Shown piece by piece: positions 8,560-57,962 of a stretch of DNA of 64,000 nt (position 1 is the stretch's first letter; every line of letters starts with the position of its first letter). The translations under genes were made by a program, and so were the position numbers. Origin of the DNA: an uncultured Myxococcales bacterium (lineage in GTDB: Bacteria; Myxococcota_A; UBA9042; DTJE01); assembly GCA_903857665.1 (NCBI GenBank), contig CAIOFV010000159.1, forward strand, positions 1,894-65,893, in the 5' to 3' direction. The notes beneath the pieces were generated by a model. That model searched no databases. It was not told where the DNA came from and saw nothing but the letters and a program-made list of their open reading frames with translations.

Positions 8560-8825
8560 TGGAGGCTCCTGTGGACAAGATTTGTGGGCGGCTTCAGGGT
8601 ACGGCAGGGGCACCCGAAGTCAAATCCCGGGTGCCTGGCGGCGGGGGGTATGCGAGCGCTGCGGCGCAGTCTGGTCGGGCACTATGTGGCTGTTTGCGTG
8701 GACGCCCGGCACCTGCGATACACGCGGGGGTACCGGACGCGGATCCGCATGCGCGACCGCACAGGTCCGATAACAGGCTGTAGAATCGAGTTGCGGCCTG
8801 CGGACCCCTGCGGAGACCTGTCGTC

Positions 8826-9293
8826 ATGCCGGCCCCGGACCCGAACTCGGGCCTCTACGTGCTGCTCCTCGAGGTGGTCGCGCCGACCTCCGTTCGGGTC
8901 GGCGCGCTGGGGACGCTGGACTTCCCGGCCGGCACCTGCCTGTACGTGGGCAGCGCCCGGAGGAACCTGCGGCAGCGGGTGGAACGCCACCTGGCGGCCA
9001 CCAAGAAGGTTCGATGGCACGTGGACTACCTGACGACGCATCCGGGCGTCCGGGTCGTCGGGGCCGTGCTGGTGACCGGGTCGAAGGCGACCGAGTGCGG
9101 GCTGAACCGGAAGGTGGGAAGGGGCGTGGCGGGCGCCGTGCCCCTGCCGCGGTTCGGGGCATCCGACTGCCGGGCGAAGTGCCCGGCGCACCTGTGGTGG
9201 CGGGAGGAGGCGGTGTCGCTGGAGGAGGTCGCGGCGATGGTGGGCGGCACGACCCTTGGGCCGCCCATTGGCCCGGACCGGCCCCCGTGGTAG
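8826..9293 (+). CDS. GIY-YIG nuclease-family protein (DUF123-type), standalone
   Basis: 155 aa. N-terminal SGLYVLLLEV...LYVGSARRNLRQRVERHL matches the GIY-YIG/DUF123 pattern (G-hYhh ... YVGSA ... R..RH). Confidence 0.65.
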   Translation: MPAPDPNSGLYVLLLEVVAPTSVRVGALGTLDFPAGTCLYVGSARRNLRQRVERHLAATKKVRWHVDYLTTHPGVRVVGAVLVTGSKATECGLNRKVGRGVAGAVPLPRFGASDCRAKCPAHLWWREEAVSLEEVAAMVGGTTLGPPIGPDRPPW

Positions 9294-9328
9294 GTTTCCC
9301 CGGGATCGATGGCCCGGGGAGGGGAACC

Positions 9329-10696
9329 GTGGGGCTGCGGCAGGTGGTCGAGTTCTTCCGGACCGGCCCGGACCGCGCCCTGCGCAGCGACGACCCGGCC
9401 GTCATCGACCGCGAGTACAAACGTCGCCGCCGCAGCGTGTTCTGGTCGGTCACGCTGGGGTACGCGTTCTTCTACGTGGCCCGCATCAACTTTTCGGTCG
9501 TCAAGAAGCCACTGCTGGACGAGGGGATCCTGTCCGCGACCCAGATGGGCGTGATCGGGTCCACGATGCTGACGGTGTACGCGTTCGGGAAGCTGTCCAA
9601 CGGGTTCCTGTCGGACCGGGCGAACATCCGGCGCTTCATGTCCATCGCGTTGCTGTGCGCCGCTGTCATCAACCTGGCGCTGGGGTTCGTCACCTGGTTC
9701 TGGGCCTTCGCGATCCTGTGGGGACTGAACGGCTGGTTCCAGTCGGTCGGATCGGCGCCCAGCGTGGTGTCGCTGTCCCAATGGTTTTCGCCGCGCGAGC
9801 TGGGGACCCGGTACGGCCTGTGGTCGGTCAGCCACAGCATCGGGGAAGGCGCGACCTTCGCCATCACGGCAGCGCTCGTGTCCTGGCTGGGATGGCGATG
9901 GGGCTTCTGGGGCCCCGGCCTGCTGTGCGCCGGTGCGGCGCTGGCCCTGTACAAGACGCTGGCCGATCGACCCGCGACCTATGGCCTGCCGTCGGTGATG
10001 GACTACCGCGACGACCATCCGGCGCCCAGGCCCGAGGGCGAAACGCCCCGCGAGGCGGTGTCGGTGGGGCGCCTGCAGGTGGAGGTCCTGAAGAACCCGG
10101 CGATCTGGGTGCTGGGGCTGGCAGGGGCCACGATGTCCGCCGCCCGGTACGGGGTCAACAACTGGGGGATGCTGTACCTCCAGGAGGGAAAGGGCTACTC
10201 GATGACCGAGGCCGGGTCGATCCTGGCCGTGTACCCGATCGCCGCGCTGGCCGGCGCCGCGCTGTCCGGGTTCGTGTCGGACCGGCTGTTCGGGTCCCGC
10301 CGTAACATCCCCGCGCTGCTGATGGGCGTGATGGTCACGGCGACGCTGACGGCGCTGGCGCTGACGCCCGCGGGCGAGCCCTGGCTGGACTCGGCCATCC
10401 TGGCGGTGTTCGGCTTCAACATGGGCGGGCTGCTGACCTACCTGGGCGGGCTGATGGCGGTGGACCTGTCACCCAAGCGGGCCGCCGGGGCCGCGATGGG
10501 GATCATCGGCGTGTTCGCCTACCTGGGGGCGGCGATCCAGGACACCGTATCGGGGCTGCTGGTGGACCAGGGGCGGACCGTGACGGACGGCGTTTCTACC
10601 TATGATTTCGACCACATGCTGGCGTTCTGGATCGGCTGTTCGCTGGTGTCCATCCTGCTGACCCTGGGGGTCTGGAACGCCCGTCCCCGGGAATAG
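9329..10696 (+). CDS. MFS organophosphate:Pi antiporter (GlpT/UhpT/PgtP family) transporter
   Basis: YKRRRRSVFWSVTLGYAFFYVARINFSV is the OPA-family N-terminus (cf. GlpT ...GYAAYYLVRKNF). About 12 TM helices; length ~455 aa from GTG 9329, which is in frame and 4 nt after GGGGAGGGGAACC. No ATG exists in frame between the GIY-YIG stop and the conserved core, so the exact start is uncertain. Confidence 0.75.
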   Translation: MGLRQVVEFFRTGPDRALRSDDPAVIDREYKRRRRSVFWSVTLGYAFFYVARINFSVVKKPLLDEGILSATQMGVIGSTMLTVYAFGKLSNGFLSDRANIRRFMSIALLCAAVINLALGFVTWFWAFAILWGLNGWFQSVGSAPSVVSLSQWFSPRELGTRYGLWSVSHSIGEGATFAITAALVSWLGWRWGFWGPGLLCAGAALALYKTLADRPATYGLPSVMDYRDDHPAPRPEGETPREAVSVGRLQVEVLKNPAIWVLGLAGATMSAARYGVNNWGMLYLQEGKGYSMTEAGSILAVYPIAALAGAALSGFVSDRLFGSRRNIPALLMGVMVTATLTALALTPAGEPWLDSAILAVFGFNMGGLLTYLGGLMAVDLSPKRAAGAAMGIIGVFAYLGAAIQDTVSGLLVDQGRTVTDGVSTYDFDHMLAFWIGCSLVSILLTLGVWNARPRE

Positions 10697-10738
10697 GCTT
10701 TCGACTTCAAGACAGCCCATCTTCAGACCGACTTCTCC

Positions 10739-10767
10739 TTGACAGGAAAGGCCCGGCGGTGTACGTA
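10739..10767 (+). promoter_or_regulatory. putative sigma-70-type promoter for the LacI/iol genes (TTGACA - 17 bp - TACGTA)
   Basis: TTGACA at 10739-10744 and TACGTA at 10762-10767 with 17-bp spacing, about 70 bp upstream of the LacI ATG. Sequence inspection only. Confidence 0.3.
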
Positions 10768-10794
10768 AGCGTTTGCGCAGCGTAATCGTTTGCG
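10765..10794 (+). promoter_or_regulatory. two tandem LacI-family-operator-like half-palindromic sites (GTAAGCGTTTGCG / GTAATCGTTTGCG)
   Basis: Near-identical 13-mers at 10765-10777 and 10782-10794. Each resembles a LacI-type operator half (TGTAAGCG..). They overlap the putative -10 element. Confidence 0.3.
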
Positions 10795-10838
10795 GTGCGC
10801 GACGCCCCCGTTGTCGGTGGACGCCGGAGAGGAACGAC

Positions 10839-11909
10839 ATGGCAGCAACGCTGGTCGAAATCGCGCGCCTGGCCCGGGTTTCCGTGGCGACCGTGTCGAG
10901 GGCGCTGAACGGCCAACCCGGCGTCGGCCCCAAGATGCGCAAGCGGATCCAGGCCCTTGCGGCCCAGGTGGACTACACGCCCCACGCGAACGCCCGGGCG
11001 CTGGTCACCGGCCGCATCCCCTTCCTGGGCCTGGTGGTTCCAGACATCACGAACCCCTTCTTCCCGTCCCTGGCCCGGGGCGCCGAAGAGGCGGCCTTCG
11101 CCCGCGGATACAGCCTGCTGCTGCTGAACACCAACTGGAGCCCGACCCGGCTGCGCCAGGCGTTCGACCTGCTGACGTCGCGGCGCGTGGCGGGACTGAT
11201 GATATCGGTGCCCCTCGAAGGGCTGGGCGACGACCACCGCGAATGGGCCGGCCTGGCCCGCACGGTGGTGATGGCCGGGGTCCCCGCTCCGGCCGGCTCC
11301 GGGATCGGAACCGTGGACGTGGACGACCTGGAGGGCGGGCGACTGGTCGGGCGGCACCTGCTGGAGCGATCCTGGCGGCGGATCGGGTTCGTCGCCGGCT
11401 CGGCGGTGGATCGCTCGGCACGGGATCGACTGGCCGGCCTGCAGCAGGCCCTGGCCGAGGCGGGGCGGCCCGGGGCCCTGGGCGCGACCTCCGCCGGCGA
11501 GTGGTCCGAGGCCAGCGGGTACGAGCAGGCGCGTCGATTGCTGGCCCGTCGCAGCCGCCCGGACGCCATCTTCGCCGCCAACGACCTGCTGGCGCTGGGC
11601 GTGGCCCGCGCCTCGGCCGAGGCGGGACTGGCCCTGGGGACCGACCTGGGCCTGGTCGGGTATGACGACATCGACAGCGTGCGCTGGACCGCGGTGCCCA
11701 TCACCTCGGTCAGCCAGCCGGAGTTCGACGTGGGGCGCGAGGCCGCACGACGCCTGGTGGCGCTGGCCGAAGGCGCCGGCGCCGAACCGGATGTCCGCCT
11801 GGAGCCCCACCTGGTCATACGGGCCAGCAGCGGCGCTGCACGCGAGACTCGCGCTGCCACGGCGAACGGCGCCCTGGCCTCCCGGACTTCCACGGAGACG
11901 ATCGGATGA
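10839..11909 (+). CDS. LacI-family transcriptional regulator (likely iol operon repressor)
   Basis: ATG 10839 lies after GGAGAGGAA. N-terminal HTH MAATLVEIARLARVSVATVSRALNG is a LacI signature, followed by a periplasmic-binding-fold sugar-binding domain. The stop overlaps the next start (ATGA at 11906-11909). Confidence 0.85.
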   Translation: MAATLVEIARLARVSVATVSRALNGQPGVGPKMRKRIQALAAQVDYTPHANARALVTGRIPFLGLVVPDITNPFFPSLARGAEEAAFARGYSLLLLNTNWSPTRLRQAFDLLTSRRVAGLMISVPLEGLGDDHREWAGLARTVVMAGVPAPAGSGIGTVDVDDLEGGRLVGRHLLERSWRRIGFVAGSAVDRSARDRLAGLQQALAEAGRPGALGATSAGEWSEASGYEQARRLLARRSRPDAIFAANDLLALGVARASAEAGLALGTDLGLVGYDDIDSVRWTAVPITSVSQPEFDVGREAARRLVALAEGAGAEPDVRLEPHLVIRASSGAARETRAATANGALASRTSTETIG

Positions 11910-13387
11910 GCACACCCATCCTGAAGAACTACGTGAACAGCGCGTTCGTGGACGCGGGCTGCCGTGGGCTGCTGGACGTCGAGAACCCGTCGACCGGCGC
12001 CGTGATCGCGCAGGTCCCGCTGTCTACCGCCGAGGAAGTAGATCGGGTCGTCCGAACTGCAGCCGCAGCGTTCCCCGGCTGGGCAGCCACTCCCGTGGCC
12101 CGCCGGGTCAAGCCCCTGTTCGAGCTTGCGGAACGCATGCGCCGCGACGAGGAGGGGCTGTGCCGCGTGCTGGTCGAGGAGATGGGCAAGTCCCTGCCCG
12201 ACGCCCGCGCGGAAATGAAGCGGGCCATCGAGAACCTCGAGGTCGCCTGCGGAATGCCGATGCTGCAGCAGGGCGAGCGGCTGGTGGGGTGCTCCTTCGA
12301 GATGGATGGCGAGGTGCTGCGCATGCCCGTGGGCGTGTTCGGCATGATCGCCCCGTACAACTTCCCGGCGATGGTGCCGTTCTGGTTCCTGCCGTATGCC
12401 ATTGCCACCGGCAACACCTTCGTGGTGAAGGCCAGCGAGCAGGTCCCGAACACGATGCAGCGGATCTTCGAGCACCTGGACGCCGTGGGCCTGCCGCCCG
12501 GCGTGGTGTCACTGGTCCACGGGGACCGGGTCGCGGCCGAGGCGCTGGTCGAGCACCCCGACGTGGCGGGGATCTCGTTCGTGGGCTCCACGAAGGTCGC
12601 CCGGCAGGTGGCCGCCCGCTGCGCGGCGACGGGCAAGCGCTTCCAGGCCCTGGGCAGCGCCAAGAACCACCTGGTCGTGATGCCCGACGCCCGCATGGAC
12701 GAGGTGGTGCGCAACATGATCTCGTCGTGCTTCGGGTGCGCCGGGCAGCGGTGCATGGCGTCGTCGGCCATCGTGGCCGTAGGCGACGCGACCTATCGCG
12801 AAACGATCGACCGCTTCGTCGCCGCGTCCCGCGACGTCGTGGTCGCCGACCCGCTGGACCCGCGGTTCGCCGACGAGCAGATGCTGATGGGCCCGGTCAT
12901 CTCGGCGAGGCACAAGGACTACGTGCTGAACATGATCGACGTGGGCGTCCGCGAGGGCGCGACGCTGGCGCTGGACGGCCGAGGCCTGACGATCCCGGGG
13001 AGGGAGGGAGGCCACTTCATCGGCCCGACGGTGCTGACGGACGTGCGCCCCGGCATGGCGGTGCACCAGACGGAAATCTTCGGCCCGGTGGTGGTGATCC
13101 TGAAGGCCGATTCGTTCGAGGAGGCGGTCGGGATCCTCAACGACCATCCCTACGGGAACGGCGCGTCGCTGTATACCCAGAGCGGGTACTGGGCCCGCCG
13201 CTTCAAGATGGAGGCGCGCGCCGGGATGCTGGGCATCAACGTCGGGATCCCTGCGCCGGTCGCGTACCTGCCCTTCGGGGGCACCAAGGCGTCGGCGTTC
13301 ACGGACATCAAGGCGCAGGGCCGCGAGGTGGTGTCCTTCTTCACCGAGTCCCGGATCGTCACCGAACGCTTCTGGCCGGAGGCATGA
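11906..13387 (+). CDS. iolA: CoA-acylating methylmalonate-semialdehyde / malonate-semialdehyde dehydrogenase
   Basis: 493-aa aldehyde dehydrogenase with FVGSTKVARQV and catalytic CMASS-type motifs (GQRCMA). It has the MmsA/IolA length and is the first gene of an iol operon. Confidence 0.85.
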   Translation: MSTPILKNYVNSAFVDAGCRGLLDVENPSTGAVIAQVPLSTAEEVDRVVRTAAAAFPGWAATPVARRVKPLFELAERMRRDEEGLCRVLVEEMGKSLPDARAEMKRAIENLEVACGMPMLQQGERLVGCSFEMDGEVLRMPVGVFGMIAPYNFPAMVPFWFLPYAIATGNTFVVKASEQVPNTMQRIFEHLDAVGLPPGVVSLVHGDRVAAEALVEHPDVAGISFVGSTKVARQVAARCAATGKRFQALGSAKNHLVVMPDARMDEVVRNMISSCFGCAGQRCMASSAIVAVGDATYRETIDRFVAASRDVVVADPLDPRFADEQMLMGPVISARHKDYVLNMIDVGVREGATLALDGRGLTIPGREGGHFIGPTVLTDVRPGMAVHQTEIFGPVVVILKADSFEEAVGILNDHPYGNGASLYTQSGYWARRFKMEARAGMLGINVGIPAPVAYLPFGGTKASAFTDIKAQGREVVSFFTESRIVTERFWPEA

Positions 13388-14484
13388 CCATGGGCGAAAC
13401 GAACGGCGGGTACCTGGGCCCGCTGCACCAGACCGTCGCGACGACGGCCACCGACTTCTGGAACGACAGCTGCGCGTCGGACGAACTGGCCGACGCGATG
13501 GTGCACGGTGCGGTGGGCGCCACCACGAACCCGACCATCGTGCTGGAGGTGCTGCGGAAGGAACTGCCGCGGTGGCGGGACCGGATCCTCGCGATGGGCC
13601 GGGAGATGCCGACCGGGTCGGAGGTCGATGTCGCGTGGCGCCTCATCGAGGAGATGGCCGTCGCCGGCGCGCGGCAGTTGATGCCCGTGTTCGAACGCGA
13701 AGGCGGCCGGAAGGGGCGCCTGTCGATCCAGACCAACCCCGAGTGGTACCGGAACGCGCCGGCGCTGGTGGCGCAGGCCGAGCACTTCGCGGGCCTCGCC
13801 CCGAACATGCAGGTGAAGATCCCCGCGACCCGGGCCGGCATCGAGGCGATCGAGGAGGCCACGTTCCGGGGCGTCAACATCAACGCGACGGTCAGCTTCA
13901 CGGTGCCCCAGGCGCTGGCGGTGGGCGAGGCGGTCGAGCGGGGGCTGCGGCGGCGGGAGGCGGAGGGCCGCGAGGTCGCGTCGATGGCGCCGGTCTGCAC
14001 GCTGATGGTGGGCCGGCTGGACGACTGGCTGAAGGTCGTCGCGAAACGGGACGGGATCGTCTGCACGCCCGGCGACCTGGACTGGGCCGGGATCGCGTGC
14101 ATGAAGCGAGCGTATGGGATCTACCGGGAGCGGGGCCTGCGGACGCGCCTGCTGGCTGCGGCGTACCGCCACCATATGCACTGGTCGGAACTGATCGGCG
14201 GCGACGTGATCCTGACGATCCCGCACGCCTGGCAGCGCCTGTTCCACGCGTCGGACATCGAGTGCCGGCCGCGCTTCGACGACCCGGTGGACCCCGCGAT
14301 CCTGGAAGGGCTGTTGCGCCGCTTCCCCGATTTCCGGCGCGCCTACGCGCCCGACGGGCTGTCGGCGGACGAATTCGACGGGTTCGGCGCGACGGCGCGG
14401 ACGCTGCGGGCGTTCCTGGAATCGTACCACCAGTTGCTGGCGCTGGTCCGGGACGTGCTGCTGCCGAACCCGGACCTGGGGTGA
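13384..14484 (+). CDS. transaldolase-family protein (transaldolase / fructose-6-phosphate-aldolase superfamily)
   Basis: ATG overlaps the iolA stop (gcATGAccATG). TATDFWNDSCASDEL...GATTNPTIV and the Schiff-base Lys region QVKIPAT are present. 367 aa. Confidence 0.8.
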   Translation: MTMGETNGGYLGPLHQTVATTATDFWNDSCASDELADAMVHGAVGATTNPTIVLEVLRKELPRWRDRILAMGREMPTGSEVDVAWRLIEEMAVAGARQLMPVFEREGGRKGRLSIQTNPEWYRNAPALVAQAEHFAGLAPNMQVKIPATRAGIEAIEEATFRGVNINATVSFTVPQALAVGEAVERGLRRREAEGREVASMAPVCTLMVGRLDDWLKVVAKRDGIVCTPGDLDWAGIACMKRAYGIYRERGLRTRLLAAAYRHHMHWSELIGGDVILTIPHAWQRLFHASDIECRPRFDDPVDPAILEGLLRRFPDFRRAYAPDGLSADEFDGFGATARTLRAFLESYHQLLALVRDVLLPNPDLG

Positions 14485-14569
14485 CAGGCCTGGGGCAAGC
14501 GGTTCGCAAAGGAACGACAGGTTCGGAGCAGGCCCGGAGAACGAACGCAGGAAAGGAGCAAAAAGCGGA

Positions 14570-15403
14570 ATGGACGAGCACCCGCGACGCATCCGGCACC
14601 CGGAAGGATTCGCGCCCGGCGTGACCCCGATCACGCGCATCGGCGCGGCCCGAGACGACACCGGCATGGACTTCGACATGGTGGTGATGCGGCCGGGCGA
14701 GGTCATCGAGGAAACCTGCGCCCTGGAAACCGCGTGGCTGCTGCTGTCCGGGGAAGCGGCGCTGGCCTGGACGGCTTCCGGGCTTCCAGGAAGTGCGGCG
14801 ACGGTGCGGCGGGACTCGATCTTCGACGAGGATCCGATCGCGCTGCACCTGCCCGTGGGGACGCATGCCCGCGTCGAGGCCCGGTCGGACGTCGAGTGGG
14901 CCCGGTTCCGCACGGCAAACGACGCGGCCTTCCCGGCCACGCTGTTCACCCACGACAACCTGCTGGAGTCCGAGGACCGGGACAAGGGGCTGTGGGGGGA
15001 CGCGGCCTGGCGGATCGTCCGGACGATCTTCGACACGCGCAACCGGCCGACGGCCCGCCTGGTGCTGGGCGAGGTGATCAACTTCCCGGGGCGCTGGTCG
15101 TCCTATCCCCCCCACCACCACCCGCACCCGGAAATCTACCACTACCGGTTCACGGCCCCACAGGGCTATGGCCACGGCGAGCTGGGCGACGAGGTGCTGA
15201 AGGTCCGTGCCCACGACACGGTGCTGATCCTGGACGGCGACGACCACAGCCAGGTCGCCGCTCCCGGATACGGCATGTACTACATCTGGGCCATCCGGCA
15301 CCTCGACGGAAACCCCTACGTCGCCCCGGAATTCACGGCCGAGCACCGGTGGATGAAGGTCCCCGGCGCGACGATGCCCCGCATCGGCAGGAGGAACGGA
15401 TGA
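14570..15403 (+). CDS. iolB: 5-deoxy-glucuronate isomerase
   Basis: 277 aa, KduI/IolB cupin family. RBS AAAGGAG. Preceded by an 85-bp gap; the stop overlaps the iolD start. Confidence 0.8.
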   Translation: MDEHPRRIRHPEGFAPGVTPITRIGAARDDTGMDFDMVVMRPGEVIEETCALETAWLLLSGEAALAWTASGLPGSAATVRRDSIFDEDPIALHLPVGTHARVEARSDVEWARFRTANDAAFPATLFTHDNLLESEDRDKGLWGDAAWRIVRTIFDTRNRPTARLVLGEVINFPGRWSSYPPHHHPHPEIYHYRFTAPQGYGHGELGDEVLKVRAHDTVLILDGDDHSQVAAPGYGMYYIWAIRHLDGNPYVAPEFTAEHRWMKVPGATMPRIGRRNG

Positions 15404-17271
15404 CGACCCGCTTGACCATGGCACAGGCCCTGGTGCGGTTCCTGACGCAGCAGTACGTGGAACGGGACGGGGTCCAGCGCCGCTTCTTCGGCGGCTGCTT
15501 CGGCATCTTCGGCCACGGCAACGTCGCCGGGATCGGGCAGGCGCTGCAGGAGCACCCGGACTTCCCGTTCATCCCCGTCCGCAACGAGCAGGCGCAGGTG
15601 AACGCCGCGGCCGGGTACGCGAGGATGAACAACCGGCTGGGCGCGATGGCCTGCACGTCGTCGATCGGCCCGGGCGCCACGAACATGGTGACCGGGGCCG
15701 CGATGGCGACGATCAACCGCCTGCCGGTGCTGCTGCTGCCCGGCGACATCTTCGCACGGCGTAACGTGGCGCCGGTGCTGCAGCAGTTGGAATCCGAGTC
15801 CGGGCAGGACGTGTCGGTCAACGACTGCTTCCGCCCGGTGTCCCGGTACTGGGATCGGATCGGGCGCCCCGAACAATTGCTGACGGCCCTTCCGGAGGCG
15901 ATGCGGGTGCTGACGTCGCCGGCCCAGACCGGCGCAGTGACGCTGTGCCTGCCCCAGGACGTCCAGGCGGAGGCGCACGACTTCCCGACGGCCTGCTTCC
16001 AGAAGAGGGTCTGGCACATCGCGCGGGCCCGTCCCGACACGGCGGCGCTGGACAAGGCCGCGGCGTGGATCCGCAAGGCCCGGCGGCCGATGATCGTGGC
16101 CGGCGGGGGGGTCATCTATAGCGACGCGACGGATGCGTTGGCCCGGTTGTGCGCCGCGACCGGGATTCCCGTGGGCGAGTCCCAGGCGGGAAAAGGCGCC
16201 CTGTCGTTCGACCACCCGTCGAACCTCGGTGGCGTGGGAGCGACCGGGACCCTGGCGGCCAACCGGGTGGCCCTGGACGCGGACCTCGTCATCGGGATCG
16301 GGACGCGCTACTCCGATTTCACGACCGCGTCCAAGACCCAGTTCCAGGGCCCGGGCGTCCGGTTCATCAACCTGAACGTGGCGGAATTCGACGCATTCAA
16401 GCACGACGGGCTGGCGCTGGTGGGCGACGCCCGGGCGGCGCTGGAAGAACTGGCGACGCGGCTGGCGGGCTGGAAGGTCGATGACGCGTACGCGGCGCTC
16501 TGTGCGGACCTGCGCCGCGAATGGGACACCGAGGCCGCGCGGCTGGTGGCGCCGACCGGAGACGGGCGGATCGGGCAGGCCGAGGTCATCGGGATCATCA
16601 ACGACACGATCCGGCCCGACGGCGTCGTGATCAACGCCGCCGGCAGCGCGCCCGGAGACCTGCACAAGTTGTGGCGGGCACGCCATCCCAAGCAGTACCA
16701 CGTGGAATACGGCTACTCGACGATGGGCTACGAGATCCCTGCGGGGCTCGGCGTCAAACTGGCGGCGCCCGAGAGGGAGGTCGTCGCGCTGGTCGGCGAC
16801 GGGACCTTCCTGATGATGCCGTCCGAGCTGGTCACGGCGGCGCAGGAAGGCCTGCGGATGACCGTCGTGCTGGTGGACAACCACGGCTACGCCAGCATCG
16901 GCAGCCTGTCGGAGTCGCTGGGCAGCGGCGGGTTCGGCTGCCGGTACAGATACCGCGCGGGGGACGGGACCCTGTCGGGCGACGACCTGCGGCTGGACTT
17001 CGTGTCGATCGCGCGCGGGATGGGCGTTCACGCGGTGCGGGCCGAGGACGGCGAGGCGCTGCGGCGCGAGATGGTTGCGGCGCGCGATCGGGAAGGCACC
17101 ACGGTCATCGTGGTGGAGTGCGATCGGGACAAGCACGTCGGCGGCTACGACTCCTGGTGGGACGTCGCGGTCGCCGAGGTATCGACGATGGACGAGGTCC
17201 GGCGCGTCCGGGCCGGGTACGAGCAGGCGGTGCGCAAGGAACGAAACTTCTTCGGGGAGAAGCGAACATGA
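15400..17271 (+). CDS. iolD: 3D-(3,5/4)-trihydroxycyclohexane-1,2-dione hydrolase (TPP-dependent)
   Basis: ATG 15400 lies after GGAGGAACGG. 623 aa with an acetolactate-synthase-like TPP fold (GDGTFLM, GxxGxG). ATGA overlaps on both sides. Confidence 0.85.
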   Translation: MTTRLTMAQALVRFLTQQYVERDGVQRRFFGGCFGIFGHGNVAGIGQALQEHPDFPFIPVRNEQAQVNAAAGYARMNNRLGAMACTSSIGPGATNMVTGAAMATINRLPVLLLPGDIFARRNVAPVLQQLESESGQDVSVNDCFRPVSRYWDRIGRPEQLLTALPEAMRVLTSPAQTGAVTLCLPQDVQAEAHDFPTACFQKRVWHIARARPDTAALDKAAAWIRKARRPMIVAGGGVIYSDATDALARLCAATGIPVGESQAGKGALSFDHPSNLGGVGATGTLAANRVALDADLVIGIGTRYSDFTTASKTQFQGPGVRFINLNVAEFDAFKHDGLALVGDARAALEELATRLAGWKVDDAYAALCADLRREWDTEAARLVAPTGDGRIGQAEVIGIINDTIRPDGVVINAAGSAPGDLHKLWRARHPKQYHVEYGYSTMGYEIPAGLGVKLAAPEREVVALVGDGTFLMMPSELVTAAQEGLRMTVVLVDNHGYASIGSLSESLGSGGFGCRYRYRAGDGTLSGDDLRLDFVSIARGMGVHAVRAEDGEALRREMVAARDREGTTVIVVECDRDKHVGGYDSWWDVAVAEVSTMDEVRRVRAGYEQAVRKERNFFGEKRT

Positions 17272-18170
17272 GCCGGATCCGTGTCGCGAACGCGCCGTGT
17301 TCCTGGGGTGTGCTGGAATTCGATCTGGATGGGCAGGCAAGCGGCGGCGAGCGGGTGCTGTCCGAGATGGCCGCCACGGGATTCGTCGGGACCGAGCTGG
17401 GCGACTGGGGCTTCCTGCCCACCGAGCCTCCGGCGCTGAAGACGATGCTGGACCGCCACGGCCTGGGCATGGTCGGAGCGTTCGTGCCCGTCGCCCTGCG
17501 GGATCCGGCTGCCCACGAGCCGGGCGCGGAAGCCGCCGTGAAGGTGGCTCGCCTGCTGGCCGCCGTGGCCGAGGCGCCGTTCGTCGTGCTGGCCGACGAC
17601 AACGGCAAGGTCCCGGAACGGACCGCCAACGCCGGGCGGATCAAGCCGGCCCAGGGCCTGAGCGACGCCGAATGGACGGTGTTCGCGGCCGGCGCGAACC
17701 GGGTCGCGGCCGCAGTGCGCAAGGAAACCGGCCTGCGGACCGTGTTCCACCACCACTGCGCCGGGTTCGTCGAAACACCCGCCGAGGTGGCGACGTTGCT
17801 GGACCGGACCGACCCGGACCTGGTGGGACTGTGCCTGGACATGGGCCACTACGCATTCGGCGGCGGCAACCCGATGGAGGCGCTGGAACGCTACGGCGAC
17901 CGCATCCGGCACATCCACTTCAAGGACTGCGAGCCTACCGTGGCCGCGCGTTCGCGGGCCGAGAACTGGGACTACTTCACGTCGGTCGGAAAGGGCGTGT
18001 TCTGCGAACTGGGCCTGGGTTCGGTGCCGTTCCCGGCGATCCTGAAGACGCTGCAGCAGCGCGGGTTCGACGGCTGGGTCGTGGTCGAGCAGGACGTGCT
18101 GCCGGGCATGGGCACGCCGCTGGAAAGCGCCCGGCGGAACCGGGAGTACCTGGCGCGGATCGGCCTGTAG
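17268..18170 (+). CDS. iolE: inosose dehydratase (xylose-isomerase-like TIM barrel)
   Basis: ATG 17268 overlaps the iolD stop. 300-aa sugar-phosphate isomerase/epimerase fold, at the IolE position of the operon. Confidence 0.75.
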   Translation: MSRIRVANAPCSWGVLEFDLDGQASGGERVLSEMAATGFVGTELGDWGFLPTEPPALKTMLDRHGLGMVGAFVPVALRDPAAHEPGAEAAVKVARLLAAVAEAPFVVLADDNGKVPERTANAGRIKPAQGLSDAEWTVFAAGANRVAAAVRKETGLRTVFHHHCAGFVETPAEVATLLDRTDPDLVGLCLDMGHYAFGGGNPMEALERYGDRIRHIHFKDCEPTVAARSRAENWDYFTSVGKGVFCELGLGSVPFPAILKTLQQRGFDGWVVVEQDVLPGMGTPLESARRNREYLARIGL

Positions 18171-18245
18171 GACGCGGGCGACGGGCGCCGATCGACGGGG
18201 ATGAAGGATCGTCGCGGCACGGTGCCGCGACTGAAGGAGCAGCGA

Positions 18246-19277
18246 ATGAACATGGCGAACAAGTTCCGGGTCGGCGTAATCGGTGCGGGACGGATCGGCG
18301 TGGTGCATGCCCGGACGATGGCCCGGATCCCGGGCTTCGAGGTGCGGGCGGTGGCGGACCCCGTGGTTGCGGCGGCGGGTCGGCTTGCCGCGGAGCTGGG
18401 CATCCCGACGGCGACGTCGGACTACCGGGAGATCCTGGCGGACCCGGCGATCGACGCGGTGCTGGTCTGCAGCAGCACCGACACGCACGCGGACATCGTC
18501 ATCGCGGCCAGCGCGGCGGGCAAGCACATCTTCTGCGAAAAGCCGGTCGATCTGTCGCTGGAAAAGGTCGATCGGGCCCTGGCCGCCGTGAAGGCAGCCG
18601 GCGTCACCTTCCAGGTGGGGTTCAACCGCCGCTTCGACCCCGACTTCAAGCGGATCCACGACCTGCTGGCCGACGGTGCGCTGGGCACCCCGCACCTGCT
18701 GCGCATCGCCAGCCGGGACCCGAACCCGCCGTCGCCCGAGTACGCGGCCGTGTCCGGGGGCATGTTCCTGGACATGACGATCCACGACTTCGACATGGCC
18801 CGCTACCTGATGGGCTGCGAGGTCGAGGAGATCTACGTCGCGGCGGCCGTGCTGGTGGACCCGGCGATCGGCGCGGCGGGCGACGTCGATACGGCCCTGA
18901 TCACGCTGCGGTTCGAAAACGGGGCGCTGGGCACCATCGACAACTGCCGACGGGCGGTGTTCGGGTACGACCAGCGGGTCGAAGTGCTGGGTTCGAAGGG
19001 CATGGCGGCCAACCGCAACCACGGTCCGGACACCGTGGTCGTGTCCGGCGCGACCCACATCGAGGAATCCCTTCCGCTGAACTTCTTCATGGAGCGCTAC
19101 GTCCCGTCGTTCAAGGCCGAGATCCAGGCCTTCGCGGACGCCGTGTCGTCCAGCACGACGCCTCCGGTGGGCGGCGAGGACGGGCGGCAGGCGCTGCTAC
19201 TGGGTCTGGCGGCGAAGCGGTCCTGGAAGGAGCATCGCCCGGTGCGACTGGCCGAGGTGGACCCGCGGCGCGCGTGA
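18246..19277 (+). CDS. iolG: myo-inositol 2-dehydrogenase (Gfo/Idh/MocA family)
   Basis: ATG 18246 lies 6 nt after AAGGAG. Rossmann motif VGVIGAGRIG plus EKP motif (FCEKP). An earlier in-frame ATG at 18201 has no RBS. Confidence 0.85.
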   Translation: MNMANKFRVGVIGAGRIGVVHARTMARIPGFEVRAVADPVVAAAGRLAAELGIPTATSDYREILADPAIDAVLVCSSTDTHADIVIAASAAGKHIFCEKPVDLSLEKVDRALAAVKAAGVTFQVGFNRRFDPDFKRIHDLLADGALGTPHLLRIASRDPNPPSPEYAAVSGGMFLDMTIHDFDMARYLMGCEVEEIYVAAAVLVDPAIGAAGDVDTALITLRFENGALGTIDNCRRAVFGYDQRVEVLGSKGMAANRNHGPDTVVVSGATHIEESLPLNFFMERYVPSFKAEIQAFADAVSSSTTPPVGGEDGRQALLLGLAAKRSWKEHRPVRLAEVDPRRA

Positions 19278-19338
19278 CGCGACCCGGTCCGCCCCCGCCC
19301 GAGCACGGAGGCTGAACAAGAACACAGGACTCGAACCC

Positions 19339-20178
19339 ATGAAGATCACGTTCATCGGTCACCTGTGCCGGGACATCAACATCATCGACGGCGCTTCCCA
19401 CGCCATGTTCGGGGGGGGCGTCTTCCACAACGGCATGACCGCGAAAGGCCTCGGGGCGAGGCCCACGATCCTGACTCGCTGCGCCGATGCCGATGCCGTG
19501 CCCATGACCCGGGACCTGGTCGCGGCCGGGGTGGAGGTCCGCGTGCGGCCCTCCGTGGCCACGACGTCCATCGAGAACCTGTACCCCGACAGCCACCCGG
19601 ACCACCGCGTCTCAACGCTGCTGGCCCGGGGCGGGCCCTTCGAAACCACCGACGTGGACGCGATCCAGGCGGACGCGGTGCACGTGAACCCGCTGTGGTA
19701 CGGCGAGTTCCCGGTCGATCTGCTGCCGGCGCTGCGGGCCCGCGTGTCGCTGTTGGGTGCCGACGCGCAAGGGTTCCTGCGAACCGCCGACACCAACGGA
19801 CGGCTGGTCCTGAGGGACTGGGCGGACAAGGGTCGGTGGATGCCCCTCTTCGACGTGTTCAAGGCGGACATCACGGAAGCCGAGATCCTCACCGGCACCC
19901 GCGAGATCCAGCCGGCGGCCCGCGCCCTGTACGCGCTGGGGGCCCGGGAGATCGTGCTGACCCACGGGGAGGGTGTCTGCGTGTTCGACGGGGGCACGTT
20001 CTTCGACGAGCCCTTCGGGACCTATTCCCTGTCCGGTCGCACGGGCCGCGGGGACACCTGCTCGGCCGCGTATCTGGTCGGACGCTCGAGGATGGGGGTC
20101 GGGGATGCGGCAACGTTCGCCGCCAAGATCACGTCGCTGAAACTGCAGTACCCGGGACCGTTCCGCGGATTCGGCTGA
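19339..20178 (+). CDS. PfkB-family carbohydrate kinase (candidate 5-dehydro-2-deoxygluconokinase)
   Basis: 279-aa ribokinase-like fold with the C-terminal GAGD-type motif (GRGDTCSAAYL). It is shorter than typical IolC, so the symbol is withheld. Confidence 0.7.
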   Translation: MKITFIGHLCRDINIIDGASHAMFGGGVFHNGMTAKGLGARPTILTRCADADAVPMTRDLVAAGVEVRVRPSVATTSIENLYPDSHPDHRVSTLLARGGPFETTDVDAIQADAVHVNPLWYGEFPVDLLPALRARVSLLGADAQGFLRTADTNGRLVLRDWADKGRWMPLFDVFKADITEAEILTGTREIQPAARALYALGAREIVLTHGEGVCVFDGGTFFDEPFGTYSLSGRTGRGDTCSAAYLVGRSRMGVGDAATFAAKITSLKLQYPGPFRGFG

Positions 20179-20258
20179 CCCGCGCACCGGCATCGACTTG
20201 CCCCGTCCTCGATCTGGTGTCAACCTTGTCGCACGTCGGGTTCGCAACCGTCCCTCGA

Positions 20259-21044
20259 ATGAAGGTTCGAATGCAACATCAATGGAGTGGCAGGGGGATC
20301 CCGGGCGCCGGGTTCGTCGTGACGGCATTTCTGTTCGCTGCGTGCGGCGGCGGGCAGCAGCACGCGTCGCCGGGCAGCGTCCTGTGCGAACCCTGCACGG
20401 ATTCGTACCAGTGCGCAGCCGGCCTGAGGTGCATCGACTGGCAGTGCGTGGTCGATCGGGGCACGTCCTGCCCGGACCTGAACCCTCCGGACGTCCTCGA
20501 TACCGGCGCGGTGGCCAGGGATCCAGGCGTGGACCCGGGAAACGCCGGACCTCCCGACGTCCCCGAGCGCGACCTGGCGGCCTTCGAGCCCACCTGGACC
20601 GACCCGACGTCGGGCCTGATGTGGGAGAATCCCCCCAGTCCATACGCCCTGTTGTGGCAGCCCGCGATCGACTACTGCCAGGCCCTGGGCCTGGCGGGGT
20701 TCACCGACTGGCGCCTTCCGACCATCAGCGAGCTGCGCACCCTGATCCGGGGCTGCCCGATCGAGGAGACCGGGGGCGGTTGCGCGGTCACCGACCAGTG
20801 CGCGTCGTGGCCCGGCTGCTGGAGCCAGGACTGCCAGGCCTGCAATCCAGGCCAGGTGCCGGCCAACGGCGGGTTCTGGCCCGAAGAAATGGCGGGCGAT
20901 CCCGGGATGTACTGGTCGTCCACGAACCGCTCCGACGACACTACGCAGGCGTGGGCGGTCGCCTTCAACGGCAGCTACATCCTGGCCCCGACCAAGGAAT
21001 GGGGGCTCTGGGAGCGTCGCTGCCTTCGGACCGTGGGACCGTGA
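20259..21044 (+). CDS. DUF1566 (Lcl C-terminal domain) lipoprotein
   Basis: Signal peptide/lipobox FLFAACGGG. MWENPPS...GFTDWRLPTISEL...YWSSTN...AWAVAFNGSY are the DUF1566 signatures. An alternative start at 20271 (MQHQ) is equally possible. Confidence 0.7.
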   Translation: MKVRMQHQWSGRGIPGAGFVVTAFLFAACGGGQQHASPGSVLCEPCTDSYQCAAGLRCIDWQCVVDRGTSCPDLNPPDVLDTGAVARDPGVDPGNAGPPDVPERDLAAFEPTWTDPTSGLMWENPPSPYALLWQPAIDYCQALGLAGFTDWRLPTISELRTLIRGCPIEETGGGCAVTDQCASWPGCWSQDCQACNPGQVPANGGFWPEEMAGDPGMYWSSTNRSDDTTQAWAVAFNGSYILAPTKEWGLWERRCLRTVGP

Positions 21045-21045
21045 C

Positions 21046-22602
21046 CTACCGGTGCGCGGACCCGCGCCCCCCGACCACCACGACGTGGTTCGTGATCGCC
21101 AGCAACTCGCCGTCCGCGGCCCACAACTCGACCCGGTAGCGACCCGGGGACCGGACCGTCCATTCGTGGCGGCATTCGAGCCGACGGGGCGGCTCCCACT
21201 GCGCTTCCAGGCGGCCGTCGCGAACCAGGCAGGCCAGCGCGGGCGTCGCATGGGGCCTCGCCAGATCCACGCGAATGGCGGCGGTCCCGCGCGGGGGCAG
21301 CACGACCGTGTCCCCGACATCGCCTTCGCCAACGTCGGTCCGGATCGACAGTTCCAGCGCGGCCCCCCGGGTCAGGAAGACGCGGCCCGCCCGGACCGCG
21401 GCCAGGATCCCCGCCTCGCTGCGGTCGTCGGTCCGCACCGCCGTGACCGGGAACACGACGTCCGCCGTGTCCTCGTGGGCCACGCCGTGCCAGTCCCTGG
21501 CCGCGATCGCAACAGGCTGCAACCCCGCATCCCACAAGCGATCCCACAGTCCCAGCGTCTTGACGATTTCCGCCCGGCGCTGCGCCCAGGCGCCGTACCA
21601 GACCTCGACCAGGTCGAAGCGGTCATACGGCACGCTGCCTTCCCGGAAACGGCACCCCACGCATACCGGTGCGCCGAAGTTGTTCGGGTGAGCCAAACTG
21701 ACCAGAGCCCCTGCCGCCCGCGCCGCGTCGATGGCGTCCACCGTCCGGACCCGCCGGCCCCGGTCTTGCCACGGGTGGCAGCGGTCGATGCCGTACAGGC
21801 AGAAATGGCCGTGGAACGTGGTCAGTTCCTCGCCCCGGATGCGGGTGACCGGCCCGTCCCGGAACTCCGCATGGCCGGACGTGACGTTGTGGTCGGTCAG
21901 CGCCACGAAGTCCAGGCCCATCGCCGAAGCCCGGCGGCCCTGCTCGTCCACCGTGTAATGCCCATCCGAGTGCACGGTGTGGCTGTGCATTTCCCCGTAC
22001 AGCACGCCGGGCAGTCGGGCGCGCTCGACCCGACGGGGCCGGGGCGCCGCGAGCCCGGGGCTCTTCGGACGCGCCGAGCGGGCCTCGGTGGGAGGCACGT
22101 CGTAGGCATCGATCTCCAGCCACGCCTCGGCCTCGTCGGTGAACACCTCCCAGACCTCGACCGCGGCCGTCCAGCGGCCCGCATCCAGCGCGTGGGGCGC
22201 GAAGCCGGGGCTGGCGAAATCGGCGCCCATCCACGCCGGCGGCGGGTCCTCGCGAGTGCCCAGGTCCCAGCGTCCCACCGAGGCGCCTCCGGGCTCGATC
22301 ACCAGCACGTTGAACAGGTTGCGGACGAAGCGCACGGTGCGGTCCAGGTCCCGCGCTTGGAAGAGCCGTTCCTCCTCGCCGGGGACGTCGAAGGGGGTGC
22401 CCCGAAGGTAGTCCTGCGCGGCCGCTTGCACGGCGATACGGTTGCGTTCGCGGTCGCGACTGCCCAGCGGCGAATACCGGAACCGAACCGCGAGGGCGGT
22501 GGTGCCCGGGGGGATGTCGAAGTCCAGGGGTACCAGAGTTCCGGAGTCGCCGGGGTGGAACCGGCCGTGCCAGGAAAGGATCACGCTGCCGCCTTCGCCC
22601 AC
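21046..22602 (-). CDS. PHP-domain metal-dependent phosphoesterase (CehA/McbA-like)
   Basis: PHP motifs GEMHSHTVHSDGHYT, ALTDHN, SLAHPN. GTG start at 22602 lies 6 nt after GGAGGG and coincides with the onset of GC3 bias. The upstream 74 codons of the 22824 ORF are Arg/Pro-rich with poor GC3. Confidence 0.65.
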   Translation of the reverse strand: MGEGGSVILSWHGRFHPGDSGTLVPLDFDIPPGTTALAVRFRYSPLGSRDRERNRIAVQAAAQDYLRGTPFDVPGEEERLFQARDLDRTVRFVRNLFNVLVIEPGGASVGRWDLGTREDPPPAWMGADFASPGFAPHALDAGRWTAAVEVWEVFTDEAEAWLEIDAYDVPPTEARSARPKSPGLAAPRPRRVERARLPGVLYGEMHSHTVHSDGHYTVDEQGRRASAMGLDFVALTDHNVTSGHAEFRDGPVTRIRGEELTTFHGHFCLYGIDRCHPWQDRGRRVRTVDAIDAARAAGALVSLAHPNNFGAPVCVGCRFREGSVPYDRFDLVEVWYGAWAQRRAEIVKTLGLWDRLWDAGLQPVAIAARDWHGVAHEDTADVVFPVTAVRTDDRSEAGILAAVRAGRVFLTRGAALELSIRTDVGEGDVGDTVVLPPRGTAAIRVDLARPHATPALACLVRDGRLEAQWEPPRRLECRHEWTVRSPGRYRVELWAADGELLAITNHVVVVGGRGSAHR

Positions 22603-25700: not shown

Positions 25701-26539
25701 ACGTCCAGCAGATCGGTGCCGGGCGCCAGGGCGTTCATCTGGACCGCGCGCGCCAGGCACAGCCCGGACGGCGGGTCGCAGATCGCCGCGCCCGCGCACT
25801 GGCCCGCGGCGTCGCACCGGGGCAGGCAGCCGCCGTAGAAGGCGTCACAGGCAGAACCGTCCGGGCAGGGATGCCGGTCGCACCAGCCGGTGCAGGCGGG
25901 GTCCAGGGCGCAGTCGTCGTCGTCGCAATCGACGGCCCCGTCGCCGTCGTCGTCGGCCTGGTCGGTGCAGTTCGTTTCGGAAACGGCCTTGAAGGTGGTC
26001 GTCATGCGGATGTACGACGCGTCCTTCGGCAGTTCGTAGTCGGTCCGCAGCACGACGTGCGTGACGACGCCCAGCATGTTGGCCTGGTCCATCAGGTTCA
26101 GCAGGGACAGCACCCGGTCGCCGCGCCCGGTCACGCGCACGACCGCCGTGGACCCGTCCGGCGCGGTGAACGCCTCGACCTGCCCCTGTTCGGGATGGGG
26201 GACCTGCAGGTTCGCGAACGGCAGCAGCAGGTAGAACTGGTCCAGGCCGTGACCGGCCCGGTACTGCTCCCAGGGCCGCACCAGGTCCGCATCGACCAGC
26301 GCGCCGCCCCAGAGGGCCGGGCTGGCAGCGTGGCCCGCGTCCAGGATCACGGCGCGAATATGCGAATTCTGCAGCACCCAGTCGCCGACGTCGCCGTACT
26401 GCTTGATGCCGCCGGGCAGTTCGGACCGGGACTCGATGCGCCGAGCCGTCGAGGGCGGATTGACGTCGGCGCACCCGGAAGCCAGGAACCCGGCGATCGC
26501 CAGCAGTAGCACCCTCGGAACCCAGGCAGACGCACGCAT
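22709..26539 (-). CDS. giant (1277 aa) PHP-domain lipoprotein with Cys-rich and MopE-like inserts
   Basis: ATG at 26539 (MRASAWVPRVLLLAIAGFLASGCAD; lipobox) overlaps the upstream porin stop (cTGATGc). PHP motifs VDQHVHTAGSSD, AITDHDF, GGSDVHG. Cys-rich modules CTDQADDDGDGAVDCDDDDC and CAADADCKDGKKC. The 1740-aa track ORF extends upstream through the porin gene in another frame and is an artefact. Confidence 0.75.
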   Translation of the reverse strand: MRASAWVPRVLLLAIAGFLASGCADVNPPSTARRIESRSELPGGIKQYGDVGDWVLQNSHIRAVILDAGHAASPALWGGALVDADLVRPWEQYRAGHGLDQFYLLLPFANLQVPHPEQGQVEAFTAPDGSTAVVRVTGRGDRVLSLLNLMDQANMLGVVTHVVLRTDYELPKDASYIRMTTTFKAVSETNCTDQADDDGDGAVDCDDDDCALDPACTGWCDRHPCPDGSACDAFYGGCLPRCDAAGQCAGAAICDPPSGLCLARAVQMNALAPGTDLLDVLSGGLLNALAGEDVPLDRKPGYVAGDMALFGSSLMSFAPGIGFEIDAQYRLGFLRGRNALKSPLSFDFLCGTGDGVSYGYFSKEGAVLFPFATESLTGSVTHGLNCLQDSSDDATCDDVPFVQFTRYLSVGEGDIASASRAIHELRGTKTGELSGLVMDGKTAHPVTRADVYAIADPCDPANCIQVPAVCGSFPTYEDLVAAARECTREPGNPDGRSLMATQFRTDAAAESRPEGRFNGSLIPGAYWLVARIGKGPLSAPARVVVSEGRTTRVALSLPEAGRLTYRALDEAGRPVGVRVTVGHCFPECHTSADCPEGQPCDAEFQCRPPTCASDGECDADETCTDGHCACASRLMAGEPREELGDGYMSDRKAAMAMSADGTGEIILPPGRYDVVFSHGFESEIDSREVVLSPGRTEYIGAYVPRVVDTRGWASVDQHVHTAGSSDAATKLGDRLTTAVADGLDVMAITDHDFITNPVPLARQMHLENRVLTLPGEEVTTLDISHLIGWPLKWAADQSAGGALNWTGKTPREIFAWMRSRGLFGADDTLVTIPHPRGGMSSYYDVYSQSPFDLTLNPGSIQKSTPLLVPANFAQEYDLVEVLNSKRLDITRMPTYDEVERYNVLERKVLASVQELPREKLLARMAPPSREILREMLTRTPAEQEALHSFVPTASCSMPSSCAADADCKDGKKCSPGLNLCKKPCATVGDCDAGYDCLDAYCSLPPGMPCDSVKGMTEDWLRMLDYGIFKPGVGGSDVHGIANYEIGCLRNYVRVPTDDPAAIDAHDLIHAYRRGNSFATWGPFVDVSVDGKGPGETAVLDGRTSVPLRVRVQKPSWFDVSRVEVLRNGVLEYVWDVDAADPKFRIAVPSHGVVALDATVDVSPGQDSWFVVFAMGVKGKAMNPVYGSSELPPVYLGDLFSSMLGSLPLALPAYIVSPRVPVYYPQFPFAVTNPVFLDVDGVDAKGCRITPIAGPAPAWACNYPPGYPAERMPCICR

Positions 26540-27864: not shown

Positions 27865-28034
27865 GATGCCTCCCCGCCCTTGCGGCCGCTTTGCCGCCGC
27901 GATGATAGCCGATCGAAATGGGCGATTCCACGATTTCCGAAAACGTTTGCTAAACGATTTCACCGCCTGGGATGGGCTTGATCGGGTGGCGGGCATCTGC
28001 CACCATCACCCGGTCTGGCGAAGGTGCCGAAGCG

Positions 28035-29060: not shown

Positions 29061-29076
29061 TCGGGGAGGCGGCTTC

Positions 29077-30921: not shown

Positions 30922-30963
30922 GACGCTCCGGTTCCGGCGACCCTTCTTGCAGCGAGGCCCCGC

Positions 30964-33960: not shown

Positions 33961-33990
33961 CGCCCCAGCCGATGCCGTTCAGCGCCGGGC

Positions 33991-37456: not shown

Positions 37457-37616
37457 GGTTCCTCCGCGGGACCTCGGTCCGTTCAAGTATGACAGGGTGC
37501 GACCAAGCCCCATGCGCTTCGCGAGGGCGCCTGATCCCCCCTGCATTCTCGGACCATTATACTCATCCAATGGCGCGGTGCGTGACATGGGGTTTCGGGA
37601 CCCGCCGGAGAACGGG

Positions 37617-57952: not shown

Positions 57953-57962
57953 CACGCACCTC

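Follow-up and report, generated by a model that had tools for sequence, protein, structure and literature searches.

In Bacillus subtilis, two enzymes fill the step of myo-inositol catabolism between IolB and IolA: IolC, a kinase of 5-dehydro-2-deoxy-D-gluconate (DKG), and IolJ, a metal-dependent class II aldolase that breaks the C3-C4 bond of the phosphorylated product (DKGP) into malonate semialdehyde, which goes to IolA, and dihydroxyacetone phosphate (DHAP). IolC is a core cluster gene of canonical systems (PMC9430895). A non-orthologous replacement of IolJ is known in the iol clusters of Paracoccus and rhizobia, where a DUF2090 domain is fused to IolC to make a bifunctional kinase/aldolase (NCBIfam NF047869). 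Thermotoga maritima uses another set of proteins (IolG, IolM, IolN and IolO, with TM0415). Here we describe an inositol operon with neither IolC nor IolJ, found in a 64-kb stretch of DNA from an uncultured Myxococcales bacterium (contig CAIOFV010000159.1, positions 1,894 to 65,893; ‘the window’ below means this whole stretch). In the aldolase slot, it has a gene of the transaldolase/fructose-6-phosphate aldolase superfamily (TAL_FSA; Tal and FSA for the two activities), whose product is called the Tal-like protein here. We consider it somewhat probable that the operon is a kinase-free variant of the Bacillus-type pathway, in which this enzyme acts directly on DKG and most likely passes a dihydroxyacetone (DHA) unit to glyceraldehyde-3-phosphate (GAP).

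Both missing enzymes were searched for over the whole window. Annotated Bacillus IolJ gave no tblastn match at E <= 1e-3, and neither Bacillus IolC nor the Paracoccus IolC-DUF2090 fusion gave any match, these query proteins being taken from annotated plasmid records. Pfam scans of most other called genes of the window found no kinase and no aldolase. The operon does end with a PfkB-type gene, whose product matches the PfkB profile only marginally, has no match to the IolC model TIGR04382, and was unmatched by Bacillus or Paracoccus IolC in tblastn. It aligns over its full length with T. maritima TM0415, for which structures are solved, at 47% identity. TM0415 is a pyrophosphate (PPi)-dependent myo-inositol kinase with a signature of five donor-site residues (PMC5931981). 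In the window protein, K171, F221, R229 and R232 of the donor site are kept and M266 is changed to Leu, and the acceptor-site residues I76, N78, S89 and L116 are all kept. By this alignment and these residues, it is a homologue of the TM0415-type PPi-dependent myo-inositol kinase and is neither IolC nor a DKG kinase, so that both IolC and IolJ are missing from the operon.

The Tal-like protein is a TAL_FSA superfamily member by its PF00923 score, its Schiff-base lysine and its fold. An AlphaFold (AF2) model built on 35 homologues (pLDDT 94.4, pTM 0.92) has the TIM-barrel transaldolase fold and superposes on transaldolases 3clm and 7bbx with Foldseek TM scores of 0.79–0.82. The closest solved relatives in sequence are the long-form transaldolases of Neisseria gonorrhoeae (3clm) and Corynebacterium glutamicum (3r5e), with E of 1e-18 but only 22–24% identity. 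Every curated transaldolase or FSA model scores far under its cut-off; the best transaldolase model, PRK03343, gives 109.4 bits against 367, tal_mycobact 71.4 against 234 and talAB 46.9 against 396, and the FSA model TIGR00875 gives 42.5 bits against 245.95.

Residues were mapped by MAFFT and hhalign alignment with TalB and FSA references confirmed to be identical to PDB 1ucw and 1l6w. Kept from TalB are D17 (D28 in the Tal-like protein), N35 (N49), the Schiff-base K132 (K145 on beta-strand 4; K85 in FSA), N154 and T156 (N167 and T169), R181 (R211) and R228 (R262). The protein retains two of three anion-binding residues, and S226 is changed to A260. The catalytic E96 is changed to Q116, which corresponds to Gln59 of FSA, and F178 is changed to M208 at the position of FSA Tyr131, where the hydrophobic Met resembles the transaldolase Phe. 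Of the catalytic-water triad of FSA, Gln59/Thr109/Tyr131 (PMC13259622), the Gln and Thr are thus there (Q116 and T169), but the Tyr is not. Judged by the residues that define either enzyme (PMC13259622), the Tal-like protein belongs with neither the canonical transaldolases nor the FSAs. The mapped catalytic-site residues, including K145 and Q116, are invariant in 35 homologues of 64–82% identity, and Gln at the catalytic-Glu position is still found in relatives as distant as about 31% identity. A YRHHxHW motif unique to the family follows R262, the last phosphate-binding Arg. The residues predicted to act in catalysis are D28, N49, Q116, K145 (Schiff base), N167, T169, M208, R211 and R262, and R211, R262, H264 and H266 are candidates for binding the carboxylate. 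PDB entry 7oey (‘E93Q’) was also considered as a catalytic-Glu mutant of the Neisseria enzyme, but the aligned Glu falls elsewhere and the entry was left unused.

A look-up of the exact sequence of the window protein returned no record, and genomic context was therefore taken from homologues. Relatives number in the thousands in public protein collections, where they go only by the name ‘transaldolase (family protein)’. A scan of about 185,000 genomes, one per species, found relatives in 376, and 80 loci were fetched. Their surroundings were analyzed by tblastn with window and reference proteins and by unbiased clustering of all neighboring open reading frames, with coverage taken on the shorter sequence. 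These loci represent Myxococcota, Acidobacteriota, Chloroflexota, Actinomycetota (Thermoleophilia/Gaiellaceae), Verrucomicrobiota, Spirochaetota and Bacillota (Clostridia), together with Calditrichales; the closest of those fetched belongs to a Myxococcales metagenome-assembled genome (94% identity), which by itself points to a probable myxobacterial origin of the window.

Linkage to inositol genes is conserved. Of the 44 well-flanked genome loci (5 kb or more on each side), 39 lie in an inositol cluster, either with iolB/iolD/iolE (35 loci) or with iolN/iolM/iolO as in Thermotoga (4 loci), and two more have an aldehyde dehydrogenase (ALDH) as the sole recognized neighbor. The direct neighbors of the Tal gene at 79 genome loci include IolB (33), IolD (26), IolA (16) and CoA-acylating ALDH (10), and metagenomic contigs show a matching iol-Tal layout. 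Since the linkage recurs in 39 of the 44, the Tal gene is not in the iol operon by chance juxtaposition. The missing steps recur as well: tblastn with annotated Bacillus IolJ gave no match at E <= 1e-3 in any of 84 Tal loci, none of these has a homologue of DUF2090 or of the DHA kinase subunits DhaK/DhaL, and among the 45 loci containing IolD, IolJ is missing from all and IolC from 42. Genuine IolC occurs in only three Tal loci, all of Anaerolineae (L013, L055 and L056; TIGR04382 392–395 bits, cut-off 300).

The family extends beyond these relatives. Another subfamily, which shares only 43% identity with the window protein, occurs in Verrucomicrobiota and Hyalangium, in iolB-iolD-iolE-Tal-ALDH clusters and also in a cluster of a TRAP (tripartite ATP-independent periplasmic) carboxylate transporter, a short-chain dehydrogenase/reductase, ALDH and Tal. 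Two fusion proteins were seen: P0127 (655 aa) joins an AP_endonuc_2/xylose-isomerase-like TIM barrel to TAL_FSA, and P0145 (566 aa) joins TAL_FSA to a KduI/IolB domain, although the latter, from a metagenomic contig, could be a gene-calling artefact.

The most telling context comes from Anaerolineae. Four loci (L033, L034, L078 and L079) have the order GntR, IolN, IolM-like dehydrogenase, sugar ABC transporter, IolO-like epimerase, Tal, (acylating ALDH) and 2-hydroxy-3-oxopropionate (tartronate semialdehyde) reductase. IolN scores above its cut-off (520 bits), and so does the reductase (TIGR01505, 357 bits), which is there in all three loci that reach far enough. The IolN/M/O route of Thermotoga leads to 5-keto-L-gluconate and D-tagaturonate, which are non-phosphorylated 2-keto-hexuronates, and in Thermotoga tagaturonate reportedly continues through UxaB, UxaA, KdgK and KdgA. 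The Anaerolineae clusters instead continue with the Tal-like enzyme, aldehyde dehydrogenase and tartronate-semialdehyde reductase, and they have no kinase. Cleavage of 5-keto-L-gluconate or D-tagaturonate between C3 and C4 would leave tartronate semialdehyde, the very compound on which the clustered reductase acts. In iolB/iolD clusters the substrate would be the 5-deoxy analogue, DKG, and malonate semialdehyde would be left for IolA. This supports that two upstream routes feed one Tal family, each with a matching aldehyde-handling enzyme and neither with a kinase. With Calditrichales included, the combination of IolN/IolM/IolO, Tal, a SauS-like CoA-acylating ALDH and tartronate-semialdehyde reductase (L078, 1371–13536; also L033, L034, L079 and L045) looks like a further, undescribed way to end an inositol route.

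From the gene content, residue pattern, fold and genomic linkage observed above, we infer the substrate, the products and the fate of the C3 unit as follows. IolG, IolE, IolD and IolB would convert inositol to the ketose acid DKG. The Tal-family enzyme would then take over both the kinase step of IolC and the aldolase step of IolJ: K145 would form a Schiff base with the C5 keto group of DKG, the C3-C4 bond would be broken to free malonate semialdehyde, which IolA would turn into acetyl-CoA and CO2, and the bound DHA unit would be transferred to GAP, giving fructose-6-phosphate (F6P), with GAP replenished by glycolysis. Less likely, the last step would be release of free DHA. Compared with IolC and IolJ, one proposed enzyme would replace two, ATP-dependent phosphorylation would be avoided, and the C3 unit would end up in F6P (or as DHA) and not as DHAP; IolJ itself has no homology to the Tal-like protein. 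The IolC-DUF2090 system differs too, as it still needs phosphorylation and its aldolase domain is of another family.

Written from C6, DKG is HOCH2-CO-CHOH-CHOH-CH2-COO-, and its structure makes it in effect 5-deoxy-D-fructuronate, with the fructose-like D-threo configuration at C3/C4 and its carboxylate roughly at the position of the F6P phosphate. Tal and FSA are both known, generally and from PMC13259622, to use non-phosphorylated DHA donors. The closest precedent for transfer to GAP, by analogy, is 6-deoxy-6-sulfofructose transaldolase (SF-TAL; SftT/SqvA, BmSF-TAL), a Tal-family enzyme whose ketohexose substrate is not phosphorylated and has a distal anionic group. In that sulfo-TAL pathway, the DHA unit goes to GAP and the freed anionic C3 aldehyde is handled by a dehydrogenase or reductase of the cluster (PMC11489063, PMC9594981). 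The likeness is at the level of mechanism only; SF-TAL belongs to a short Tal/FSA branch (about 220 aa), its substrate has a sulfonate instead of a carboxylate, and the Tal-like protein matches SF-TAL structures 8bc2/8bc3 only over residues 107–179 (E 1e-4, 25 bits).

An earlier note on this DNA had suggested two roles for the gene, a substitute for IolJ in the aldolase slot and a variant route cleaving the unphosphorylated ketodeoxygluconate. The substitution gains support from the distinct iol-linked subfamily and its 39 well-flanked loci, and the second idea becomes the favored one, as the PfkB-type protein is not a DKG kinase and IolC is so often missing. The same note had considered that the protein might cluster with housekeeping transaldolases; its scores far under the transaldolase cut-offs, its Gln in place of the catalytic Glu and its iol linkage place it instead in a distinct, iol-linked subfamily.

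We are fairly confident that a non-phosphorylated keto-uronate is cleaved, by whichever mode. Between the modes, transfer is somewhat preferred, because the FSA Tyr is replaced by a hydrophobic Met and no DHA kinase is found at any locus. FSA-like retro-aldol cleavage of unphosphorylated DKG to malonate semialdehyde and free DHA, with a DHA kinase encoded elsewhere, is rather unlikely by our estimate but still competes seriously, given the FSA-like Gln116, which aligns with FSA Gln59 and not with the transaldolase Glu throughout the family. Besides this Gln, E. coli FsaA shares the Schiff-base Lys and the DHA donor, and the context evidence for an unphosphorylated substrate fits release equally well. 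Moreover, Tal and FSA activities interconvert on residue swap, as stated in PMC13259622 with reference to Stellmacher 2015 and as indicated by the titles of PDB entries 4rz6 and 3cwn. On the other hand, the acid-base Tyr131 of FSA is Met208 here, the FSA model scores far too low, FSA is a 220-aa decamer-type protein against 366 aa, and neither a DhaK/DhaL homologue in the window or the 84 loci nor any DHA-handling gene among the recurrent neighbors was found.

Alternatively, the protein could replace only IolJ, as a class I enzyme splitting DKG-6-phosphate into DHAP and malonate semialdehyde, with IolC located elsewhere in most genomes. We regard this as improbable; it is kept chiefly because of the three Anaerolineae loci in which IolC stands beside Tal without IolJ, and the DUF2090 fusion provides a precedent for non-orthologous IolJ replacement. 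Against it are the 42 of 45 IolD-containing loci without IolC, the iolN/M/O-type clusters likewise without a kinase, and the invariance of Asn49 and Asn167, the counterparts of TalB Asn35 and Asn154, which we take to be donor contacts in TalB structures. We also know of no Tal/FSA-family member that takes a DHAP-type donor, which weighs against a DKGP aldolase. A further reading, an ordinary transaldolase of the pentose-phosphate pathway present in the operon by accident, with the real kinase and aldolase elsewhere, agrees with the Pfam class TAL_FSA and with the database naming. It is very improbable, however, given the low score of the best curated model, the replaced catalytic Glu, an inositol linkage across at least seven phyla and two subfamilies, and the fusions with IolB-type and isomerase-type domains. 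The long-form transaldolases, nearest in sequence and fold, differ by the same Glu-to-Gln change, by lacking the YRHHxHW motif and by a pentose-phosphate rather than catabolic context.

Several points weigh against transfer of a DHA unit from DKG to GAP. The three IolC-bearing loci fit a DKGP substrate, and the absence of IolC and IolJ in related genomes covers ±10 kb around the Tal gene. Three of the 44 well-flanked loci have no recognizable inositol context. The sequence does not reveal the mechanism, since the Gln and Met leave neither of the known acid-base catalysts in place. To our knowledge, the C4 configuration of D-tagaturonate is not accepted by classical transaldolases.

Because the window is about 70% G+C, its genes were placed by a frame plot of G+C at third codon positions (GC3) and by reading of junctions, and then scanned with Pfam and NCBIfam. 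Nine co-oriented genes make up the operon region (Table 1). The earlier note was right about the gene set, the four ATGA overlaps, the Tal gene between iolA and iolB, and the absence of a class II aldolase. Its left boundary at iolA does not hold, as a LacI-family gene that overlaps iolA and a gene of the major facilitator superfamily (MFS) extend the unit upstream, and the Tal-like protein is 366 aa long, not 367. Its ‘short PfkB kinase’ is the 279-aa TM0415 homologue and not a DKG kinase. The overlaps lie at 11906 (lacI/iolA), 13384 (iolA/tal), 15400 (iolB/iolD) and 17268 (iolD/iolE). A promoter and terminator scan of 8500–21200 gave nothing exceeding shuffled expectation.

Table 1 Genes of the inositol operon region at 9329–20178 of the window.
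Gene product	Position	Strand	Evidence
MFS transporter, organophosphate:phosphate antiporter family (GlpT/UhpC/PgtP-like)	~9329–10696	+	PF07690 2.5e-46
LacI-family regulator	10773/10884–11909	+	PF00356 and Peripla_BP domains
IolA, CoA-acylating (methyl)malonate-semialdehyde dehydrogenase (MMSDH)	11906–13387	+	TIGR01722 491.9 bits (cut-off 448.5)
TAL_FSA-family protein, 366 aa	13384–14484	+	PF00923 131.1 bits (threshold 27)
IolB-like 5-deoxy-glucuronate isomerase	14570–15403	+	PF04962 163 bits; TIGR04378 80 bits, under cut-off 205
IolD, thiamine diphosphate (ThDP)-dependent ring-opening hydrolase	15400–17271	+	TIGR04377 897 bits (cut-off 715)
IolE, inosose dehydratase	17268–18170	+	TIGR04379 201 bits (best family, under cut-off 290); PF01261
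IolG, inositol 2-dehydrogenase	18201–19277	+	TIGR04380 449 bits (cut-off 355)
PfkB-type protein, 279 aa, TM0415-type myo-inositol kinase homologue	19339–20178	+	E 8e-77 to PDB 1vk4/5ysp

The IolB-like protein is 38% identical to annotated Bacillus IolB (E 9e-47). The LacI gene starts at TTG 10773 or GTG 10884, and 37 related loci have a LacI gene. The MFS gene, whose start is uncertain (ATG 9014 or GTG 9329), scores 270 bits with TIGR00881, 247 with UhpC and 245 with GlpT, each under its own cut-off, and is kept upstream of the cluster only in the Myxococcota loci L001, L005, L011, L065 and L080. The TM0415-type kinase gene, like this antiporter-type gene, was seen only in Myxococcota versions of the cluster, so the kinase is an accessory gene outside the conserved core.

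These two genes bracket the Myxococcota operons (the window, L001, L011, L018 and L065), which have no ordinary inositol transporter. One possibility, purely speculative, is that an inositol phosphate would be imported and the kinase would run in reverse, from inositol 1-phosphate (Ins1P) and phosphate to inositol and PPi, saving a phosphate bond. At L003, a phosphatidylinositol-specific phospholipase C gene (PF16670; 6894–7958) adjoins the iol-Tal cluster, hinting at inositol lipids as a source of substrate.

Other versions of the cluster differ in their additional genes. The cultured Pelolinea submarina MO-CFX1, with a complete genome, has iolB-iolD-ABC-iolE-iolG-(TIM-barrel isomerase)-Tal-acylating ALDH (L040; NZ_AP018437.1, 1383665–1404732), with the Tal gene at about 1393665–1394732; its acylating ALDH would yield malonyl-CoA where IolA yields acetyl-CoA. 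Acidobacteriota OY969910.1 and the 4.85-Mb contig ERZ18545485:ptg000015l also bear a Tal-type cluster. Acidobacterial iol-Tal clusters (L017, L022, L032, L035, L041–L044, L047, L050, L052 and L083) recurrently contain a PfkB kinase (e.g., L032, 5663–6586), which is not IolC (111 bits against the cut-off of 300), and also bear an APC-family permease, a GH4 glycosidase and a large outer-membrane barrel. Five Thermoleophilia loci (L037, L051, L066, L070 and L072; e.g., L072, 5037–13195) have a Tal-like gene without iol neighbors, flanked on one side by an AhtL/pyrogallol-hydroxytransferase-like molybdoenzyme with an Fe-S subunit and MobA/MobB and on the other by a molybdate-type ABC transporter. 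On contig DASRZL010000140.1 (L066/L067), the Tal gene and its neighbors are present in two inverted copies, from either a large inverted duplication or an assembly artefact.

Elsewhere in the window, an Exo_endo_phos gene at 28035–29060 was tried as an inositol-phosphosphingolipid phospholipase that would feed the operon and was dropped, its solved relatives including a mannosyl-6-phosphatase (PDB 4c1r). For this reason, the block at 26539–36069, which comprises a phosphate-selective porin (− strand), the Exo_endo_phos protein, a sodium:solute symporter, a GH38 alpha-mannosidase and a GH31 enzyme, looks like one for phosphomannan/mannan degradation. Two minus-strand genes at 2055–3482 and 5896–8394 comprise one for a predicted protein with a C-terminal WAP four-disulfide-core domain, which is mostly eukaryotic, and a large neighbor with a partial papain-family match. 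An aromatic amino-acid cluster at 36329–42476 encodes fusions of chorismate mutase (CM) with prephenate dehydrogenase and with prephenate dehydratase-ACT, 3-deoxy-D-arabino-heptulosonate-7-phosphate (DAHP) synthase and a class IV aminotransferase, with threonine dehydratase adjoining. A Psr/Phs-like molybdopterin oxidoreductase at 56250–63090, with a catalytic subunit bearing a Tat (twin-arginine translocation) signal, a 4Fe-4S subunit and an NrfD membrane subunit, adjoins a sulphur-transport protein and a TauE/SafE exporter.

A literature search found no paper that ties a transaldolase-family enzyme to inositol catabolism, although most subscription journals were outside the search, so that this is no proof of novelty. 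In NCBIfam release 20, IolN, IolM and IolO have equivalog models of their own and the Tal-like protein has none. Within the literature searched, the operon thus appears to be an undescribed variant of a known pathway, based on an uncharacterized branch of a known superfamily and backed by strong comparative genomics. Beyond this operon, we tentatively propose, at slightly less than even confidence, that an unnamed, widespread family of ‘keto-uronate transaldolases’ closes both the iolGEDB and iolGMNO routes without a kinase, moving the C3 unit of DKG or of 5-keto-L-gluconate/tagaturonate to GAP to make F6P. The cultured P. submarina MO-CFX1 makes the idea directly testable.

If true, the transaldolases would gain a new reaction and, with carboxylate-bearing ketoses, a new class of substrate. 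They would also gain a natural Gln/Met variant of the active site, relevant to the divide between transaldolase and aldolase. A catalyst that forms C-C bonds and accepts acidic aldehydes may also be of interest for biocatalysis. Turnover of inositol and phytate is a large flux of carbon and phosphorus in soils and guts, and genome surveys score inositol utilization by the core set iolB/C/D/E (PMC9430895). Such surveys would then under-call inositol use in Acidobacteriota, Chloroflexota, Myxococcota, Verrucomicrobiota and others, and the inositol pathway would have to be revised for several little-cultured phyla of soil and sediment.

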